Part shown: positions 2,310-12,715 of the stretch, piece by piece
Layout of the letters: each line of letters begins with the position of its first letter
How positions within the stretch are numbered: position 1 is the stretch's first letter
DNA from: Candidatus Latescibacterota bacterium
GTDB taxonomy: Bacteria; Latescibacterota; UBA2968; SICM01
Reading direction: 5' to 3'
DNA length: 64,000 bases
NCBI GenBank assembly: GCA_965217865.1
Contig: CBDCJO010000002.1
Location: forward strand, 3,456,001-3,520,000
Position numbers and translations under genes: made by a program
The notes under the pieces: model-generated
Database searches by the model: none
Seen by the model: the letters and a program-made list of their open reading frames with translations, nothing else
What the model was told of the DNA's origin: nothing

Positions 2310-5300
2310 TTGAAGTCATCCGTTTCACCCGAAAGCCTCAGGATCCAATCCCAAAGGAGGGATGAAATTTCCAATTATCCTGTCCAGGTCCCACGATTCC
2401 TCGCCCTGTGCATCCCCCTGGTCTTCTGGTCGATCGAAATTTCAGCCCAGGCCGCTGGTACGATCGGGACCTTTGCGGGAGGGGGTACCTCCGAAGCGGA
2501 TACCCTTGCGACGGCGTCCCGGCTTATTCTTCCCACAGGACTGGCGGTGGACGGGGAAGGCAATGTCTTTATTGCCGACCCGGGTGCGCACCTTGTGAGA
2601 CGGGTGGATGCGGAGAGCGGGATCATTACGACCGTCGCGGGCACCGGGGAACCGGGGTTTGACGGAGATGAGGGTCCTGCCGTTCAAGCACGGCTGAACC
2701 GTCCGATCGGGGTTGCGGTGGATGGGGATGGCAATCTGTTTATCGCCGATAGGGGGAACCGGAGGGTCCGGCGGGTCGACCGAACGAGCGGGATCGTTAC
2801 GACTTTCGCTGGGACCGGGGAACCGGGGTTTGACGGAGATGAGGGACCGGCTGCGGAGACCCAACTCTACGAGGTTGTGGGGCTCGCCGTCGATAGCGGA
2901 AACAATCTCCTGATCGTGGACGGGGGAACGGTCGTAGAGGACCCGTTCTTCGGGAGCCGCATCGTGGGGAATCACCGGATCCGCAGGGTGGATGCGAACA
3001 CGGGGATCATCTCCACGATCGCCGGGACCGGGGTCGCGGATTTCAGCGGGGACAACGGTCCCGCGATCTCGGCAGCCCTCTCGTTTCCCTCCCGTGTCGC
3101 GGTTGATGCATCAGGCAGGATTTTGATCTCCGATTCGGGAAATCACCGGGTGCGCGTGATTGACCCGGAAAACGGAATCATCTCGACCTTCGCGGGTGTG
3201 GGTGGAGATCCGTTTACCGGAGCGGGCGGCTTTTCCGGGGACGGGGGGTTGGCGACTCTTGCGGGTCTGGACAGTCCGGTCGGTCTCGCCTTTGACGATG
3301 AAGGCAACGTCTTTATCTCCGATCAGGGAAACAACAGGGTTCGATGGGTGGACACGAACGGTGTGATCTTCAGCGTGGCTGGGACTGGAAGGGGGGAATT
3401 CGGTGGGGATGGGGGTTTCAGCTTTCAAGCTGGACTCGATCTTCCTTCGGACGTCGACCTGCTTCCGAGGGGTGATCTGCTCGTGGCCGACTCGGGGAAC
3501 GGACGAATCCGGAGACTCTTCGGGCCCAGGACGCTCATTCCGCTCGGCGACGCTGTCCAGGAGGTCGATTTCGGAGGTGCCACCCTAGAGACCACGAGGG
3601 AGAGAACGGTCTCCGTGCGGAATGTGGGGAACGCCCCCCTCGGGATAAGGGAAATCCGAACCGATAACCCTTTGTTCGTGGTCCTCGACACAAGCCTGAC
3701 CCTCGCGGTCGGGGACAGCCTCGTGGTCTCCCTTAGTTTTACTCCGGAGACCCCCGTGAGAGTTGAGGGGATCCTCACGATCTTAACGAATGATCCGGTG
3801 GGCCGGCTCACGGTGACCCTTACCGGCCTTGGAACCATCCCCGATATCCTGCTTCTCGATCAGAGCATCAATTTCCTTCCTCTTGTGATCGGGTTGTCCG
3901 ACACGCTCGAGGTGACCCTGTTTAACCGTGGGATCGGTGATCTTTTTGTCCGGTCCGTGACCAGCTCAGATGCACAATTTATCTCCCCGGACACCCTGTT
4001 TTCGCTCAGCTCCGGCCAGAACATGCAACTGCGCGTCATCTTTTCACCCGCGTTGGTCGGAGAGCAGACGGGCACGCTCACGATCCAGAGCAACGACCCT
4101 GATGCGGGGGCAGTAACCCTCGATCTTCGCGGGGTCGGCAGGCCGGCAAAGCCCGGTGGGTTTACTGCGATCGGGGACAGTCTGGGCCTTGGAGGGACCG
4201 GGCGGGAGTTCGGGGTGGCCTGGGGGGACTATAACGGAGATGGGAGTCCGGACCTCTACATCGCGAGAAGCCTCCTTCCGGGTTCTCTCCATCGGAACAA
4301 TGGGGACATGACATTCACCGATATGGCTGTCGGGCTGAACGTCACCAACGATCGGGACGGCAGCGCGCCGTTGTGGGGGGATTACGACAATGACGGGGAT
4401 CTGGATCTTTTCGTGACAAATTTCAACGAGCCGAATCGGCTGTACCGGAATGACGGAACGGGATTCGTCGACGTCGCCGGGGCGGCCGGACTCGACGCTG
4501 CCACGGCGGGGATGGGCGGGGCCTGGGCGGACTACGACATCGACGGGGATCTCGATCTCTTCGTGGCCAACTTCGGTCCCGATCACCTCTATCGGAACGA
4601 CGGCGGGCTATTCGTGGATGTATCGCCCGGGCTTGGTCTCGTGGATTCCCTCGGAAGCAGCGTTCAGCCGGCCTGGGCGGATTACGACCAGGATGGCGAC
4701 CCGGACCTGTATGTGGCGGCCAGCGGGAGAGATCGGTTTTTCGAGAACGATAACGGTCTGTTTGAGGAGATCGGGGACTCTCTGATGGTGATCGATCACG
4801 CGCCCAGCTTCGGGGCAGCCTGGGGGGACTACGACAACGACGCGGACCTGGACTTGTTCGTCACAGGGTTCAACACCGTATCGCATCTGTATCGAAACGA
4901 TGGGGGGTCGTTCGAAGACGTGGAGGGGAGCCTTTTTTTTGAAGACGACGGTACCTGGAAGTCGCGGGGAGCCGTCTGGATAGATTATGACAACGACGGA
5001 GACCTGGATATCTATATCGTGCGGAGCAACCAGACGAACCTTCTCTACCGGAATGATGGGGGGGCCTTCACCGAGGTGGGCGAGGAGCTCGGGGTCGATT
5101 TGCTCGGGGATGGGCGGGGCGCCGCGATTTCCGACTTCGACGGCGATGGTGCACCCGACCTGTACGTGGCCAACCAGGACGGTCCGGGCCGCCTCTACTG
5201 GAATCGCGAAGCCCTTGGGGGCTGGCTTGCAGCCCAACTGGTCGGTAGTTTGAGCTCGACGGATGCGATCGGTACGCGTGTTCTGGCGGTATTCGATGGG

Positions 5301-7064
5301 CGGCCTCTCCTTCAGGAGGTCAGCGGAGGATCCTCACACCTCTCCCAGAGCGGGGCGGTCCTCCTGTTTGGAGCGGGACGGGCGGAGTTCGCGGATACGC
5401 TGACCGTCCGTTGGCCCAGCGGGATCGTCCAGGTGCTGAATGCCCTTCCGGAAGGCCGGCTCACCCGGATCGAGGAGACGCCACCCAGTCCCGCATCCCG
5501 GATCGAGTTGACGACTTCCGCGACGGAGTTGATCGCAAACGGCGCCTCGACGGCAAGGCTCATTGCCTCGGTCTTGGACGCGAGGGGAGAACGATCCTTG
5601 AGCAGCCGGGCAACGATCACCTTTGGAATCGATTCGGGGCAGGGGAGGCTCGAAGGACCGTTGACGGTCGAAGCCCGCGATGGGGTGGCATCGATCCTGT
5701 TCCGTTCGCCCGATCTGGTACCGGGACGGACCTCAATCTCAGCGCGTTCGCCCGGGTTAACGAGCGGGCGGGTCGAGATCGATCTTTTCCCCACACCTGC
5801 CGGAGGCGCGATCGCTGTGGCGGCGGGAAGCGGTCTGACCGGGCTGAGCGGAGACGGGGGCCCAGCTATAGAGGCGGGGCTCAGCCTTCCGGAAGGGGTT
5901 GCGGTCGCCGACACGCTGGGCACGATCTACATCGCCGACACGAACAACAGCGCCGTGAGGCGTGTGGACGGGGGGTCCGGGGTGATTTCGACCCTGGCCG
6001 GAAACGGGGTACGTGGAAGCACAGGGGACGGGGGGCCTGCTTCGGAAGCGCGCCTGAACACCCCATCGGATGTCCTGGTCACATCGGACAACCGGCTCCT
6101 GATCGTGGATACGGGAAACCACAGAATCAGGCAGATCCACCTGGACACCGGGATCATATCGACCCTTGTCGGGGTCGGGTTCCTCGGGAGTGAGGGGGAC
6201 GGGGGCCCCGGCGCAGAGGCAAACCTGTTCTTTCCGACATCGGCCGCGCTCGACTCCCTCGGCAATCTCTATATCGTGGACACAAACAACCATCGCATCC
6301 GCCGGGTGGATCGAGCGACGGACATCATCAGCACGGTCGCCGGAGACGGATCGGCCGGGTACTCCGGGGATGACGGTCCGGCTTTCCGGGCAAGCCTCAA
6401 CCAACCCCAGGGGATCGCTTTCGACCCCGAAGGCCGCCTCTACATCGCGGACACGGAAAACCATCGCATCCGCCGGGTGGACCTGGTCACAGGAACAATC
6501 ACCACTGTTGTCGGAGACGGCCAAAACATATTTGCAGGTGATGGGGGACCAGCCCGGGAGGCCAGTCTCAACGGGCCCAGGCGCCTGGCCATAGGCCCAG
6601 GGGATGACATCTACATCGCGGACACCGGAAACCATCGCCTGCGAAGGGTGGATGCCGGAACGGGTCTGATCACGACCGTGGCGGGGACGGGGGTCGTGGG
6701 GTTCAACGGGAGGGAAGGTGAGGATGCGAGGGAGATCCAATTGAACGAACCGGTGGGGATCTCCCTGGAAGGGACAGAGGGTTTGTTCCTGACGGACCGG
6801 GGAAACCATCTGGTTCGACGACTCACGATCAAAAAGCAGGATGTTCCGATTGATTCCGTGACCTCCGATTTCGACAGTGACGGGGAGGTGGGGCTCGAGG
6901 ATTTCTTTCTTTTCGTGGAGAAATTCGGAACAATGGAAGGAGAGCCAACGTTCGACGCCAGTTTCGACCTGGTGAAGGATGGAACCGTCGACTTCAACGA
7001 TTTTTTCGTTTTCGCGGGACAGTTCGGGAGACGGACTACCAAACCCGTTTTCTTTTCCCGTTGA
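2310..7064 (+). CDS. Large secreted multidomain protein: NHL repeats, Ig-like (choice-of-anchor D-like) domains, FG-GAP/CRTAC1-ASPIC/UnbV region, second NHL block, C-terminal EF-hand/dockerin-like tail
   Basis: Repeated IAD(T/S)GNHRIRRVD..TGIITTVAG.G..GFSGDGGPA; WGDYDNDGDLDL repeats; VRWPSG; DFDSDGEVGLEDFFLF tail; true start uncertain. Confidence 0.85.
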   Translation: MKSSVSPESLRIQSQRRDEISNYPVQVPRFLALCIPLVFWSIEISAQAAGTIGTFAGGGTSEADTLATASRLILPTGLAVDGEGNVFIADPGAHLVRRVDAESGIITTVAGTGEPGFDGDEGPAVQARLNRPIGVAVDGDGNLFIADRGNRRVRRVDRTSGIVTTFAGTGEPGFDGDEGPAAETQLYEVVGLAVDSGNNLLIVDGGTVVEDPFFGSRIVGNHRIRRVDANTGIISTIAGTGVADFSGDNGPAISAALSFPSRVAVDASGRILISDSGNHRVRVIDPENGIISTFAGVGGDPFTGAGGFSGDGGLATLAGLDSPVGLAFDDEGNVFISDQGNNRVRWVDTNGVIFSVAGTGRGEFGGDGGFSFQAGLDLPSDVDLLPRGDLLVADSGNGRIRRLFGPRTLIPLGDAVQEVDFGGATLETTRERTVSVRNVGNAPLGIREIRTDNPLFVVLDTSLTLAVGDSLVVSLSFTPETPVRVEGILTILTNDPVGRLTVTLTGLGTIPDILLLDQSINFLPLVIGLSDTLEVTLFNRGIGDLFVRSVTSSDAQFISPDTLFSLSSGQNMQLRVIFSPALVGEQTGTLTIQSNDPDAGAVTLDLRGVGRPAKPGGFTAIGDSLGLGGTGREFGVAWGDYNGDGSPDLYIARSLLPGSLHRNNGDMTFTDMAVGLNVTNDRDGSAPLWGDYDNDGDLDLFVTNFNEPNRLYRNDGTGFVDVAGAAGLDAATAGMGGAWADYDIDGDLDLFVANFGPDHLYRNDGGLFVDVSPGLGLVDSLGSSVQPAWADYDQDGDPDLYVAASGRDRFFENDNGLFEEIGDSLMVIDHAPSFGAAWGDYDNDADLDLFVTGFNTVSHLYRNDGGSFEDVEGSLFFEDDGTWKSRGAVWIDYDNDGDLDIYIVRSNQTNLLYRNDGGAFTEVGEELGVDLLGDGRGAAISDFDGDGAPDLYVANQDGPGRLYWNREALGGWLAAQLVGSLSSTDAIGTRVLAVFDGRPLLQEVSGGSSHLSQSGAVLLFGAGRAEFADTLTVRWPSGIVQVLNALPEGRLTRIEETPPSPASRIELTTSATELIANGASTARLIASVLDARGERSLSSRATITFGIDSGQGRLEGPLTVEARDGVASILFRSPDLVPGRTSISARSPGLTSGRVEIDLFPTPAGGAIAVAAGSGLTGLSGDGGPAIEAGLSLPEGVAVADTLGTIYIADTNNSAVRRVDGGSGVISTLAGNGVRGSTGDGGPASEARLNTPSDVLVTSDNRLLIVDTGNHRIRQIHLDTGIISTLVGVGFLGSEGDGGPGAEANLFFPTSAALDSLGNLYIVDTNNHRIRRVDRATDIISTVAGDGSAGYSGDDGPAFRASLNQPQGIAFDPEGRLYIADTENHRIRRVDLVTGTITTVVGDGQNIFAGDGGPAREASLNGPRRLAIGPGDDIYIADTGNHRLRRVDAGTGLITTVAGTGVVGFNGREGEDAREIQLNEPVGISLEGTEGLFLTDRGNHLVRRLTIKKQDVPIDSVTSDFDSDGEVGLEDFFLFVEKFGTMEGEPTFDASFDLVKDGTVDFNDFFVFAGQFGRRTTKPVFFSR

Positions 7065-7169
7065 CAGGGAAATTTACTGATTTCGCAGAGATTCGCATTT
7101 TTCGAGAATTCGGATCTTCAAGGTTTTTTGATTGAAAGCGAGGTAGTGTGAGGCGACATATCAACGGGG

Positions 7170-7825
7170 CAACTGCCCGTGATTCCTTGGCCCAGTCCAA
7201 CGGGCTGGGTTTGAATGTGGGCGAATCGAGCGGGCCAAAGGTCATCGATCCGGATCAATCCCACACATATCGTAGATGAATCATGATGCGTGACAGGGAT
7301 TGGGGGATGTGAAATTATCGCGCCCCTTCAGGCCGCACGACGCTATTGTATTTACGACCCAGGGCGTTGCCCTGGGTTGAGGAACAACGCGCCGTTGGCG
7401 CTGAAAGAAGGCCTTGACTTTAGTCTCGGCTTCTCGATTAGCCTGAAAGCCTGGGTTTGATGCTATGAATCACCGGGCGAGGTGGTGTCTCGTCCCTACT
7501 GGAAATGGGTGGGCCGATAAAGGGTAGACCTAACCCTCAAGCCATCGGGCCAACGGCCAGTGATTCCTTTGCCCAGTCCAACGGGCTGGGTTTGAATGTG
7601 GGCGAATCGAGCGGCCCAAAGGTCCGCGATCCGGATCAATTCCACACATACCGTAGATGAATCATGATGCGTGACAGGGATTGGGGGATGTAAAAATTAT
7701 CGCGTCCCTTCAGGCCGCACGACGCTATTGTATTTTACGACCCAGGGCGTTGCCCTGGGTTGAGGAACAACGCGCCGTTGGCGCTGAAAGAAGGCCCTGA
7801 TTTTAGTCTCGGCTTCTCGATTAGC
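7170..7825. repeat. Tandem pair of ~275-bp REPIN-like units (about 7170-7442 and 7551-7825)
   Basis: Near-identical blocks offset by ~381 bp, each containing hairpins GCCCAGTCCAACGGGCTGGG and ACCCAGGGCGTTGCCCTGGGT. Confidence 0.8.
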
Positions 7826-7905
7826 TCGAAGGTCGCGAAGACACGATCCCCTATATTCCACGGAGAACCCATTTTCCGAAAATTCTAATTGAAGGGATAG
7901 GAGAT

Positions 7906-8211
7906 ATGCGCAGACACACCCGGTTTCTCGTCGTCCAGCTGCTTTTCGCACTGTTCCTGTCGTGCATCTTTCCCATCTCCCTCCTTTCACAGGAGGACGC
8001 CGGGGGGACCGGGTCCCCCGGCTGGATGGAGCATTTGATCCTGAAACTGAATGAACACGTCGGGCACATCGTCAGTTATATGGCGGACATCCTTTTTGCG
8101 GATTTCAGGACGGGTGTCCCTCTGATCGTTGTGGTCCTGGTGGCCGGCGGGGTTTACTTCTCCTTCTTCTTCGGATGGATGTCAATCCGGGGATTTCGGC
8201 ACGCCATCCAC
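7906..8211 (+). pseudogene. Alanine/glycine:cation symporter (AgcS/AlsT family), 5' part, interrupted by IS110
   Basis: Reads ...GFRHAIH and continues in frame as VIRGRYDDP at 10127 once the IS is removed. Confidence 0.88.
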
Positions 8212-8340
8212 TACATGCGGAAAGTCAAGAGCAAGGTTGACGATTTCGAGGTTGGATGAGATTTTTTATGCCGGTTTTCTCAGCGTCAAGGGGTGTAAAG
8301 TGGACATTCTTACTATGTTCGGAGCGCAGTTCGCCCTTAT

Positions 8341-8618
8341 GGTGCAGGACCGGTCTTTGAAGAGGGGCGAAGCTCCCGTGTGGGGGGTGGTGTCTTCCGA
8401 TACCAACTTACATCCGCGGCCGGCACTCTTGTTTGTGTGAGTAGGTGTGCCGGTCTTCGCGCATTTTCTAATCCGATCCAGGAAGACGGGGAGGCCTGCG
8501 GATCTGTTAGCCGAAGCGACTCCTATCGGAGCCCTCCTCTCAAGCCAGTTCTGCAGGCCGCCCCTGGCCGCCTTGGAAGGCGGCAGCTTGTGTAACCGGT
8601 CCGGCAGGAGACTGCACC
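8341..8618 (-). ncRNA. Candidate IS110 bridge/seek RNA in the 3' non-coding end
   Basis: Closing stem GGTGCAG..GGACCGGT with ACCGGTCCTGCACC encloses two hairpins with large internal loops; loop segments resemble the circle junction. Confidence 0.55.
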
Positions 8619-8669
8619 GGATGTGAATCGAGCAGCGATGTCAAAGAGCGAGTGTGACCGCGGCAGCGG

Positions 8670-10002
8670 TCAGGCGGCGGCGCGAGCGCGCCGTCGGGGA
8701 TGCTGCTTTTTCTTGTAGCGCTTCATGTAGCGCCTCTCGAGCGTTTTGAGGGATGCCGCGGGGTGGTCTCTCTCCTCGTAGAGACGATTTTCTCTGAGCA
8801 GGGCTACGATGAGCCGTAGGAGCTGGGACGAGGCGGCCACGATATTCTTGCGGTAGCACTTCTTCCTGAGCTCGCGTTCGAGGAAGCGGCGGCGGACCTG
8901 GGGCACGACCCGGGCGGTCTGTTCGGTCATCTGGGTAGATGATTCGCCGCAGCCGGGGATTGCCGATCTTGCTCATCCGCCTTTTGCCTTTGTACTTTCC
9001 GGAGTCGGCGATGCGCACGTTCGTGCCGGCGAGCTTCTCGATCTGTTTGAAGTGGGTGAAGCGGGTGGCCCCTCGCGTCTCCGCGGTAAATTGGGCAGCC
9101 AGGTTTTTGTTGATGTTGGGGATCGAGTCGACGATTTGGAAAGTCGGATCCTGCTGAGTGCGGGCGATCATCGCCTGCTCCACAGCTTTGAGTTGCGTCT
9201 CGGTCCGCCGGAGCGCCTCGATCCAGCCATTCAGGATGATGCGGAGGACATCTTCCTGGCCCTCGACCGGGATCCCGATGGAGGTCCGGGCCTCCTCCTT
9301 CAGCTTCTGCAGCGTCGCCACCCCGTAACTGCCTCTTGAGATCCGATGGATCTGGCGGCCCTCCTCTTCGATGTCAATTTCCTCGAAGTGGCGGGGCAAG
9401 AAATATCGCTCCAACAGGTAGCGGGAGGTCTTCGTACGAATGTTGACCGCGTGGAGGAACTCCGGGAAGACGCGTTCCATCAGAGACCGGGTGCGGAGCA
9501 GGGACTTTGTGAGGTCCTTCCGGAGCTTGTCGTAGGCGATTGAGAGCTGGTGCGCGGCCTCCATGTGAGGCTCGAACGTCCTGAAGAGATCATAGCTTCC
9601 CTTCTGTGCGCTGTCGGCCACCAGAAAGGCATCCCTGGGATCCGACTTGGAGAAATCGCGGTGCATCATCGGTCTTGCGTGATACGTCGTGAGGGGGCTC
9701 ACCAGCAGCACGCGATACCCCTTCCCCTGGAGGTAGTGGGCCAGGGTAACCCACAGATTGCAGGACGTCTCGATGGCCACCACCATCCGATCCGGCCCGC
9801 AATCTTTGATGCGTCGCTCCAGATGCTGCCAGAGGGTATGGTCATATCCCGCTCGCGTCACGGGGAATGAGAAGGCCCCGCCTTGCTGAAGTCCGGAGGG
9901 ATCGAGCACCGACCCGCTGTGTTTTTCCTTGCCCGGATCGATCCCGAGGACGAAATTCTGGGAGATGGCCTGTCGTTTAAGGTGGAAGATTTTCGACTTC
10001 AT
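8670..10002 (-). CDS. IS110 recombinase/transposase with a frameshift near 8935 (real or sequencing indel)
   Basis: LGIDPGK, IETS, KSDPRDA, LAG...SG...SKIGNPRLRR; C-terminus continues in ORF 8670..8930. Confidence 0.88.
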
Positions 10003-10126
10003 CGTATACCTCCAGCGTTGAGGGTTGAGTTTGCTTGCGCTTGCCGAATCTTAAGACACCTTGCCTTGCAAGGGAAGATTCAGCCCCTCAACGCTGTTTT
10101 TTCCTCCTTTACTCAATATAGAAATC

Positions 10127-11440
10127 GTTATCCGGGGGCGCTATGACGACCCCAAGGACCCGGGTGAGATCTCCCATTTTCAGGCCCTCACCAGCGCGCT
10201 TTCCGCAACGATCGGCCTGGGCAACATCGCAGGTGTGGCCATCGCCGTGGGTCTGGGGGGGCCCGGCGCGGTCTTCTGGATGATCCTCACCGCCCTGTTC
10301 GGGATGTCTTCAAAACTCGCTTCCTGCACGCTGGCTGTCATGTACCGCAAGGTTCACCCGGACGGCCATATATCCGGAGGTCCGATGTACTATCTGGAGC
10401 AGGGGCTCCGGGAAAAGGGGCTGCGGCCGCTCGGCCGCACACTGGCCGTCCTCTTCGCTCTCCTCACCATCGGGGGTTCCCTGGGGGGAGGGAACATGTT
10501 CCAGGCCAACCAGACGGTGGAGATCTTCAGCACCATCTCCGAGGACTTCAGGACCTACAACTGGGTGCTTGGTCTCTGCTTCTCGGTCATGGTTGGCATC
10601 GTGATCATCGGCGGTATCCGCCGGATTGGCCGGGTCACGTCCCGTATCGTTCCGTTTATGTGCCTCACCTACGTGATCACGGCGATCCTGATCATCCTTT
10701 CCCATCTTTCCGATGTCCCGGAGATAATCGCAACGATCGTCCGTGAAGCCTTCACGGGACCCGCGGTTTATGGCGGTTTCATCGGAATTCTGGTCACGGG
10801 GGTGAAGCGAGCGGCTTTCTCGAACGAGGCCGGCCTCGGGTCCGCTGCATTTGCGCATTCGGCGGCAAAGACCAATGAGGCCGCGCGCGAAGGTATGGTC
10901 GCGATGATCGGCCCCTTTATTGACACGATCGTCATCTGTCTGATGACCGCATTGGTTTGTATGATTACGGGTGTTTATAACGACCCGCAGTTCCAGGGTC
11001 AGGGCGATTTCGTCGTGGGGGCCAGGATGACGGCCGCGGCCTTCGAGTCGTCCATACCCGGTTCCCGCTACGTCCTTTCGCTGGCCGTCATGCTCTTTGC
11101 TTACTCAACGATGATCTCCTGGTCCTACTACGGGGAACGGGCGTGGGAATATCTCTTTGGGGCCAAATCCATCCTTGTCTTTCGGATCATCTTTGTCTGC
11201 TTCGTCTTTATCGGATCGGTCACCACCTTGAGAAATGTGCTGGACTTTTCGGATATGATGATCCTCGGCATGGCCTTCCCGAATATTATCGGGGTCGTGA
11301 TACTGAGTCCGCAGGTCAAGGCGACTCTGAACGAGTACTGGGGGCGGCTGAAATCGGGACAGATGGTCCCATACCGGGAGGGGCATAAAGTCCAGGATTC
11401 CCGCGGCTCGATGGATGATCCGGGAAAAGCCCGGCCTTAA
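10127..11440 (+). pseudogene. Alanine/glycine:cation symporter, 3' part
   Basis: ISHFQALTSALSATIGLGNIAGVA, GGPGAVFW, GGPMYY, FSNEAGLGSA, FIDTIVIC. Confidence 0.92.
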
Positions 11441-11512: not shown

Positions 11513-11830
11513 TCAGGTTGGGTTTTTCGATTCGCGGTAGTCTTTAAGGAGGGAAGCCCGCACAGCGTCTTGAGCAGATTTCACCGGAACTATATGGAGC
11601 ACGGCATAAAAACGGCGCCGATCTGAGTTCTGGACTGGTTCGCTCCAGGCATAGCAGACCGACGCTTCTTTATGGCCCTTCAAGTTAAAAACGTGCACAT
11701 CATCTTCCCATACGGTCTGGCCCTGAAAGGTTTCGTGGACGTGTTCGATATGACTGAAGATGGCTTTGCAGGAATGGAGGCCCTCTACGGTTTCTTTAAG
11801 TTCCTTCTGGCCCACTTTCTTCATCTTCAC
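11513..11830 (-). CDS. Hypothetical passenger protein inside the IS1-like element
   Basis: Intact 105-aa ORF between the IS ends. Confidence 0.65.
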   Translation of the reverse strand: MKMKKVGQKELKETVEGLHSCKAIFSHIEHVHETFQGQTVWEDDVHVFNLKGHKEASVCYAWSEPVQNSDRRRFYAVLHIVPVKSAQDAVRASLLKDYRESKNPT

Positions 11831-11929
11831 CTTTCAACAAGTCATCATCCACAAGGAAGGTTTTCAATTGTTTCAAATGTTCCATTGCAGATTCCAATTT
11901 CCTCCACTCCTCTGAGGTCATCGGATTGG

Positions 11930-12715
11930 GTAAACGTAAGGAGATCTACAGAGCGTATAGTGGAAACTCACAGAGACACGATACTAAGGCTGATGTGCCG
12001 TGTTGGGGCTGGATGTGAGAAATTGATGGATTCTGAGATGCGGAATCTGTCTTGTGAGCGGATTCAGTTGGATGAAATTTGGGGCTTTGTTGGGAAAAAG
12101 CAACGACACCTAAAGGAAGGGGATGATGTGGCAAGCCTTGGGGATACGTGGACCTTCGTGGCCTTGGATGCGAAATCGAAGCTGGTGCCTACCTACAAGG
12201 TGGGAAACCGAGATTCGGCAACCGCTCAAGTCTTCTTGGATGATTTGGCTTCCAGGCTGACTGGCAGGATACAGTTATCGTCTGATGCCTTTAGCGTATA
12301 TTTTGAGACCGTTGACCGGGCGTTCGGCACAAATGTTGATTATGGACAAATCGTAAAGGTCTATGAAGCCGAACCTATTGGGGCTGGTAGGTATAGCCCG
12401 CCCAAAGTTACTGGGGCAAGGCGTCAAAGCCTATGGGGAAATCCCGATCCAGCACACATCTCAACCAGCCACGTTGAGAGACAGAATCTCACTATGAGAA
12501 TGAGCATGAGGCGGTTCACCAGATTAACCAATGCATTCTCAAAGAAGTTGGATAACCTCAAGGCAGCGGTGGCCCTTCACTTCGCATACTATAATTTCGT
12601 CAGGATTCATAAGACGCTGGGTATCACACCAGCGATGGAGGCAGGGGTTACAGGTAGGCTTTGGTCGCTTGGGAATCTTATGGATGCGGCAATGGATCAC
12701 AATCATGCAAAATAA
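11930..12715 (+). pseudogene. IS1-family DDE transposase, apparently missing its N-terminal HTH start
   Basis: HRDTILRL, QLDEIWGFV, QLSSDA, STSHVERQNLTMRMSMRRFTRLTNAFSKK, TPAMEAG. Confidence 0.8.

Follow-up and report, generated by a model that had tools for sequence, protein, structure and literature searches.

Insertion sequences of the IS110 family are described as inserting without target duplication, as possessing junction promoters and as encoding a guide in their long non-coding regions. For IS621 and the other bridge-RNA elements (Durrant et al., 2024; Hiraizumi et al., 2024, 2026), the published accounts describe a recombinase with DEDD and Transposase_20 domains, insertion without target duplication, a promoter that has one half in the right end and the other in the left and is complete only in the circle, and a structured non-coding RNA whose internal loops have sides matching donor and target; a CT dinucleotide core is stressed in this work. 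Here, we analysed a 64,000-nt stretch (the window) of the genome of a Candidatus Latescibacterota bacterium (GenBank assembly GCA_965217865.1, contig CBDCJO010000002.1, positions 3,456,001 to 3,520,000 of the forward strand; source genome of 6.43 Mb in 2 contigs), in which an IS110-family element lies inside a gene for an alanine/glycine:cation symporter. We hold, at roughly four chances in five, that this is one copy of a multicopy element which inserted into one of three symporter paralogs and most likely simply inactivated it, and that the copy is frameshifted and is predicted to depend on other copies.

The window element resembles IS621 in its recombinase domains, in the lack of target duplication and in the putative split promoter, and a structured non-coding RNA with loop sides matching donor and target was predicted in it as well. 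However, the two proteins are distantly related (phmmer E = 2e-10, in the C-terminal part) and differ in length (443 vs 328 amino acids), the guide of the window element is located 3′ of the gene and not in the left end, and donor and target share one base and not the CT dinucleotide.

A second group to be compared is formed by the IS1111-attC elements (ISKpn4, ISPst6, ISPa25; Siddiquee et al., 2024), which insert in a specific orientation near the end of attC, possess a long 3′ non-coding region giving the seekRNA and form a circle with abutted ends. The window element is alike in its orientation-specific insertion near the end of attC-like sites and, as predicted from its sequence, in the RNA and the circle; its non-coding DNA is also distributed similarly, with 458 nt on the 3′ side vs 124 nt on the 5′ side. 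On the other hand, ISKpn4 and ISPst6 are listed in Table 1 of a review as inserting at AA/CG (the slash marks an insertion point here and below), about 8 nt before GTTAG, whereas the window element inserts directly at ...AAC/GTTA. IS1111 transposases are described as having 330-350 amino acids, and the elements as having subterminal inverted repeats of 7-17 bp; in contrast, the protein studied here has 443 amino acids and no consistent subterminal repeat was found, since the best inverted matches fell at inconsistent positions and a 6-7 bp repeat near the tips was present only in two relatives (L069 and L075). The seekRNA elements ISEc11 and ISEc21, which differ from the window element in their targets and have shorter proteins, are reported to require the non-coding region for circle formation and transposition and to add no bases at insertion, and the junction promoter Pjunc of ISEc11 is described as active. 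The seekRNA papers describe where insertion occurs, with no duplication, and do not employ the concept of a core.

IS492 of Pseudoalteromonas atlantica, an IS110-family element with a circle junction promoter, is said to excise precisely and restore a gene of the eps locus, resulting in phase variation of polysaccharide production. It is the precedent behind the idea, put forward in a first-pass annotation of the present locus, that the element could be a reversible off-switch on an amino-acid transporter. IS492 belongs to the short Piv-like branch, with proteins of 315-330 amino acids.

The element interrupts one of three symporter paralogs

The 3′ part of the interrupted gene matched Pfam Na_Ala_symp (PF01235) with E = 2e-130 and 436 bits, which places it in AGCS, and two intact paralogs of about 92% identity were present in the same genome, so that the gene is one of three copies. 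Its 5′ part closes with the codons CAC GCC ATC CAC, and the gene resumes after the element with GTT ATC, the codons for a V-I pair that is conserved in the symporter. The element runs antisense to this gene. On the + strand, the left junction (8211/8212) reads cacgccatccac/tacatgcgg (longer, cacgccatccac/tacatgcggaaagtcaag) and the right junction (10126/10127) reads agaaatc/gttatccggg (longer, ctcaatatagaaatc/gttatccggggg), and the C at 8211 and the C at 10126 represent the single base common to both junctions.

It had been claimed that joining 8211 to 10127 restores the symporter frame (HAIHVIRG) with one C shared, and this was borne out by the paralogs, by an empty-site contig and by the colinear alignment. 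In the two intact paralogs, CCAGGTGATCC stands at the place of CCACGTTATCC in the joined window gene, and the length is equal at the join, with no extra residues at this position. Furthermore, the proposed search for an empty site led to an uninterrupted allele in the public run X10, which comes from another study and is 95-99% alike. A 337-nt contig of this run links 8210 to 10126 with 1915 bases skipped and one ambiguous base, and it has zero differences over 10126-10201. The CACGTT empty joint was not found among the contigs of X1 and X2, the likely source runs, where only the paralog joint (GGTG) was seen; assembled contigs drop rare forms.

The ends of the element were then defined by its other copies. 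The segment 8150-10200 gave 21 matches in its own genome, seven of them nearly full-length when the window copy is included. In the loci fetched after a mismatch-tolerant search, AC preceded the 8212-side end in all ten copies, and the 10126-side end was followed by GTTA in nine of ten and by GGAA in the remaining one, a partial copy. When the whole genome was searched for exact matches, TAAC stood before the transposase-proximal end in 7/8 cases and GT after the distal end in 9/9. The copies thus share the ends that had been assigned to the element, and the constancy of the flanks (AC/.../GTTA), together with the one base shared at the empty site, indicates a site-specific insertion without target duplication or terminal inverted repeats. 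The conserved flanks belong to the target and not to the element, because the X10 empty-site contig keeps them. The features of the locus are collected in Table 1.

Table 1. Features of the interrupted symporter gene and of the inserted element (window coordinates; ORF, open reading frame)
Feature	Position	Strand	Basis or remark
5′ part of alanine/glycine:cation symporter gene (codons 1-102)	7906..8211	+	ORF; aligns to intact paralog residues 1-101
IS110-family element, 1915 bp, transposase gene on - strand	8212..10126	-	Ends shared among copies; empty-site contig (X10)
3′ part of symporter gene, from codon 103 (GTT ATC CGG)	10127..11440	+	Pfam Na_Ala_symp; paralog residues 103-521
Transposase gene, frameshifted, 453-amino-acid ORF	8641..10002	-	Pfam DEDD_Tnp_IS110 and Transposase_20; intact copies have 443 amino acids
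+1 frameshift, CCC where intact copies have CC	8933..8935	-	Alignment of copies
Displaced C-terminal 86 codons, other reading frame	8670..8930	-	Identical to C-terminus of intact protein P0001
Left end, 124 nt, 5′ non-coding	10003..10126	-	GAT.TCTAT..T terminus conserved in relatives
Right end, about 458 nt, 3′ non-coding, with predicted guide RNA	8212..8669	-	Comparison with relatives
Guide block 1 (predicted), GGCTAAC-A-GAT	8502..8512	-	Left flank in sense, spacer A, first three left-end bases
Guide block 2 (predicted), AGAAAAT	8463..8469	-	Complementary to left-end positions 2-7, one bulged base
Guide block 3 (predicted), CGGATGTA-A-GTT	8405..8416	-	Right-end terminus in sense, spacer A, then G and start of right flank
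Stem B (predicted), enclosing blocks 2 and 3 and a variable hairpin	8392..8487	-	Strands 8475-8487 and 8392-8404
-10 half of putative junction promoter, TATATT, left-end positions 7-12	10115..10120	-	TATnnT at same place in 11/11 elements
-35 half of putative junction promoter, TTGACT, 11 nt from right-end terminus	8223..8228	-	TTG in 11/11 elements

The transposase gene carries a frameshift shared with one other copy

Membership in the IS110 family was confirmed by both Pfam domains and by NCBIfam NF033542. The N-terminal DEDD/RuvC-like domain DEDD_Tnp_IS110 (PF01548) was matched by residues 19-180 over profile positions 1-155 of 155 (E = 2e-18), and the C-terminal Transposase_20 (PF02371) with E = 1e-13, the latter domain being interrupted in the window copy, where the frameshift falls at profile position 69 of 87. 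With NF033542 (IS110 family RNA-guided transposase), the intact copy P0001 scored 157.9 bits, above the cut-off of 140. Across 30 aligned homologs, S334 is invariant and G335 nearly invariant, and RLRRIIYQMTxQTA is kept across the frameshift position.

The frame of the window copy is correct to about residue 356 and continues as an out-of-frame tail. The extra C was found in two of the eight aligned copies, the other six having CC, and the only other carrier is located at C2:4977749-4979670 (L002). The 443-amino-acid ORF is open in L003-L006, and four places in the genome encode a full-length transposase without stops. The sharing of the frameshift by two copies at different loci suggests that a defective copy was moved in trans by intact ones, and the window copy is probably non-autonomous and dependent on other copies. 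Short contigs over 8270-8706 and over parts of the transposase gene occurred at depth 2-6 in three metatranscriptome runs of one study; these contigs do not show strand or start and may reflect DNA carry-over, and they were not used as evidence.

The left end opens with GATTTCTATATT and contains a GGAGG ribosome-binding site. Most of the transposase 5′ leader lies between the arms of a perfect 12-bp inverted repeat (10013-10024 and 10085-10096; CAGCGTTGAGGG / CCCTCAACGCTG), which stops just ahead of this site.

Relatives of the element occur in many phyla

An exact-peptide search of genome contigs returned zero close relatives, and an alignment-based scan with the 30-homolog alignment recovered 35 loci from many phyla. 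The left-end terminus (T/A/C)AA(C/T)/GAT.TCTAT..T was present in 16 of the 24 loci examined upstream of the gene. The right-end terminus could be placed in ten relatives, so that 11 elements were compared, the window family counted; this set includes relatives with transposases that are 38-48% identical. In nine relatives whose ORF is complete, the 3′ non-coding DNA measures 406-506 nt. Closer to the source, only four of 60 related genomes gave a match at E <= 1e-20, the nearest being 51% identical and interrupted by stops, and the best transposase matches in a plasmid collection were about 27% identical. Five relatives forming a subgroup (L055, L056, L057, L059, L068) have a different upstream region with a common GTCCTGACGCCC..GAG and without the GAT.TCTAT terminus, and they may represent a sister clade with another end and target.

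The 3′ non-coding region is predicted to encode a guide RNA

Alignment of the last 440 nt of the 11 elements gave three conserved blocks. In block 1, TAA(C/T).GAT was found in 11/11 elements, and L065 has TAAT in the block and in the flank alike. Block 2 has the consensus AGA(A)NAU, whose N pairs with left-end position 4 in ten of the 11 elements through A-T, U-A and C-G pairs; only L067, which has a broken ORF, departs from this. Block 3 follows the GTA/GCA/GAA changes of the right-end terminus, and its agreement with the right flank extends over 7, 6 and 5 bases in a row in L064, L065 and L067, respectively. When the assignment of guide to DNA was permuted 5000 times, the observed mean was reached in 26 and 54 permutations for the block 3 comparisons and in 29 for block 1. 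The pattern matching used in this test mis-registered block 2 (window family, L053, L062) and block 3 (L051), and the covariation of block 2 was therefore read from the alignments.

The two strands of stem B pair at a mean of -14.0 kcal/mol within the same element, compared with -7.9 across elements, and none of 5000 permutations reached the own-pair mean. These own-versus-cross duplex energies were used in place of RNAalifold, which lost stem B in a run on ten sequences through alignment shifts. The outer stem and inner hairpin around block 1 also show several pair types. No Rfam family reached its gathering score in window 7000-10400. From these features we infer that the 3′ non-coding region encodes a guide resembling a seekRNA or bridge RNA with a two-loop layout, in which the blocks would read the flanks (..TAAC on the left and GT.. 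on the right) as well as the left end (GAT.TCT) and the terminus of the right end (..ATGTA). Unlike the IS621 guide, blocks 1 and 3 each join a part of the flank to a part of the element, and no RTG-like segment was found.

The usual targets resemble attC sites

The right flanks of most copies read GT-N11-CGAAC followed by a hairpin, and the CGAA(C) motif of attC-like sites was present in seven of nine right-flank sequences. TAACGT occurs 857 times in the genome on both strands, 65 times with CGAA at the same spacing, and the stricter form CGAAC[CT] gave 32 unoccupied sites. In the window's orientation, such a site reads nnnTAAC-(inner arm)...(inner arm)-tgAAC/GTTAnnn with an ATG within about 10 nt; a TAAC partner was located 57-156 nt upstream in 24 of the 32 sites, many of which have long L′′/L′ inner-arm stems. 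Integron attC sites are imperfect palindromes of 57-141 bp (RYYYAAC...GTTRRRY) with paired inner arms, after which the cassette ORF follows. The insertion point of the element falls precisely between spacer and GTTRRRY (GTTA) box, and by this architecture its usual targets are attC-like inverted repeats of the form RYYYAAC...GTTRRRY. The flanks of the relatives gave a similar picture once rejoined: a RYYYAAC...GTTRRRY partner within 2 mismatches was present in 6/9 loci having enough flank, those of four of these six loci (L051, L053, L061 and L075) fold as long imperfect palindromes, and L061 has the perfectly complementary boxes ACATAAC and GTTATGT.

The symporter site, GGATAAC/GTGG, fits guide block 1 at six of seven bases and block 3 at GT, a predicted fit as good as that of many attC-like sites. 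The symporter would have been hit since its GGATAAC/GT fits the guide as well as these sites do. Where the paralogs have CAGGTGA, the window gene has CACGTTA, and by this comparison it is two substitutions that created the target in the window copy.

Dozens of attC-like sites are located in small clusters of the chromosome, for example at C2:369471-373150, 527690-528452, 4223260-4233944 and 4314692-4316535. A conserved stretch of about 45 nt, which includes cctgacaacgagggcctttagattaatatca, stands directly before several of these sites (for example C2:235209, 528452, 1604792, 2462544, 3242773), as if one cassette end were repeated. The best integrase candidate, a split sub-threshold match at C2:1657178-1657988, adjoins two attC-like sites.

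A promoter would be assembled across the circle junction

The first-pass annotation had predicted that the abutted ends form TTGACT-17 nt-TATATT pointing at the recombinase; the coordinates match, and the geometry was kept in all 11 elements. On the + strand, the two hexamers appear as agtcaa (8223-8228) and aatata (10115-10120), whereas on the element strand the right end closes with TTGACTttccgcatgta and the left end opens with gatttcTATATT. The 17 nt between them would consist of 11 nt from the right end and 6 nt from the left end, with the transposase start 105 nt downstream. Across the junction, TTGnnn-17/18-TATnnT was found in 11/11 elements, six with TTGAC[AT] and five with TTGC..; a T-rich tract lies upstream of the -35 in most of them, and the spacer sequence is variable. 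The stretches matched by the guide blocks include neither the conserved TTG nor the A8, T9 and T12 of the -10, whose conservation is for this reason best explained by promoter function. Upon circularisation, the right end would give TTGACT and the left end TATATT, and the resulting promoter would likely direct transcription of the transposase gene and of the guide downstream of it. In the integrated state, a promoter scan found nothing promoter-like that points from the left end toward the gene. A back-joining joint for the circle junction (gaaatCtacatg) was not found in X1, X2, X8, X10, X12 and X19-X21, a result that is uninformative since the contigs drop rare forms. A weak promoter-like TTGACG-17-AAAAAT is present near the right end (8261-8289, - strand), directed outward toward the symporter 5′ part and not conserved in relatives.

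Donor and target share a single base

In 11/11 elements, both the left end and the right flank begin with G (C on the + strand). The base after this G is always A in the element and is A (5), C (3) or T (3) in the flank, where it equals the base after the G of guide block 3 in eight of the 11. The preceding bases never agree, being C or T in the flank and A in the right end. Donor and target therefore need to share only one base, and this conclusion is sound. The earlier statement that a 1-nt core is shorter than the 2-nt core of IS621 was thus upheld across the 11 elements; the contrast is real but modest. Compared over this set, the junction geometry and the shared G are more than chance. 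Junction promoters and scarless ends are known traits of the family, and hence they do not set the window copy apart.

Neighbourhood of the symporter gene

Just upstream of the symporter, two tandem non-coding units with a period of about 383 bp occupy 7297-7830; each gave a sub-threshold match to Rfam Acido-Lenti-1 (7358-7402 and 7741-7785; 28.6 bits vs a gathering score of 37). A 1584-amino-acid ORF (2310-7064) contains numerous short repeats and, at its centre, a D/G/N-rich block of repeats, the repeat type being judged by eye. Downstream of the symporter, a 347-amino-acid ORF (11672-12715) resembles another transposase, by eye only.

Discussion

Several observations weigh against the reading of the locus given here. 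No RTG-like segment complementary to the right flank took a consistent position in the elements, which leaves the guide model incomplete. In the genome, the TIGR02249 cut-off of 265 was not exceeded by any integron integrase; the best match was split (117.7 and 105.4 bits), and sub-threshold matches occurred in all 14 control genomes as well; the attC assignment is consequently one of architecture only, and for this reason the sites are termed attC-like. Promoter and guide activity are deduced from sequence and conservation only, and RNA, transcription start and circle were not observed. The window symporter is otherwise intact, with no other stops, which also fits a recent or reversible insertion. 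The frameshift itself could be an assembly error in the CCC run. If the extra C were such an assembly or polishing error, the window copy would encode a normal transposase of 443 amino acids and would be autonomous; the short homopolymer and the lack of the extra base in the collapsed contigs of four DNA runs speak for this. However, contigs from the public runs collapse all copies, represent the majority copy and are uninformative for the window locus, and systematic homopolymer errors should strike all copies alike, whereas only two of the eight aligned copies have the extra C; an autonomous window copy is therefore unlikely. Far less weight can be given to an element that is 6 bp longer and includes TAAC and GT, with no sequence preference at insertion and no shared base. 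TAAC/.../GT does flank nearly every copy and (T/A/C)AA(C/T) precedes the left end in 16 relatives sharing the terminus, but the X10 empty-site contig keeps CCACGTTATCC, the paralogs are of equal length at the join, GTT ATC encodes the conserved V-I, and unoccupied TAACGT is common in attC-like repeats, all of which leaves this alternative with hardly any probability.

The proposed off-switch, in which precise excision at a useful frequency and re-insertion would make amino-acid uptake phase-variable, was not supported and is considered very improbable. The exact in-frame join, the absence of another lesion in the gene and the uninterrupted allele in another population (X10) are compatible with it, and post-excision junctions of IS621 are described in E. 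coli, where action in trans is possible. Nevertheless, the transposase gene of this copy is frameshifted, two intact paralogs of about 92% identity make the symporter redundant, and in the antisense orientation host read-through would produce neither transposase nor guide RNA. The X10 allele has 4 differences in 261 and thus belongs to another lineage and is not a revertant, and the natural targets are attC-like repeats and not the symporter. The literature disagrees on whether circle formation empties or restores the donor site: the donor copy of CazIS110-1 is reported to be retained, the donor is likewise described as retained for IS621 in vitro, and the ISEc11 study reports that a rejoined empty site was not detected. 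Under simple inactivation by a dependent copy, which we prefer, intact copies acting in trans could in principle still excise the element and restore the symporter, and nothing indicates frequent or regulated excision.

For the source genome, the insertion is of little consequence, as one of three symporter paralogs was knocked out. The wider clade is of more interest than the window copy, in view of its homing to the attC edge, its one-base overlap and its junction-spanning guide blocks. Tentatively, and with the odds somewhat against it, the relatives could constitute an undescribed clade of RNA-guided IS110 elements spread over many phyla, having transposases of about 440-455 amino acids, a 3′ guide, homing to the attC edge one base from the integrase crossover, a one-base core and two guide blocks that mirror the junctions, each reading a flank together with an element end. 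Such a clade would be a natural test case in which donor and target share one base and the right flank is apparently read by the block of the donor-side loop, and its elements would compete with integron recombination at the attC edge. As independent comparative evidence, the conserved split promoter of 11 diverged elements supports circle-specific expression in the family. The clade would be relevant to the flexibility of core and guide layout in bridge recombinases, and to the erosion of cassette arrays by insertion sequences.

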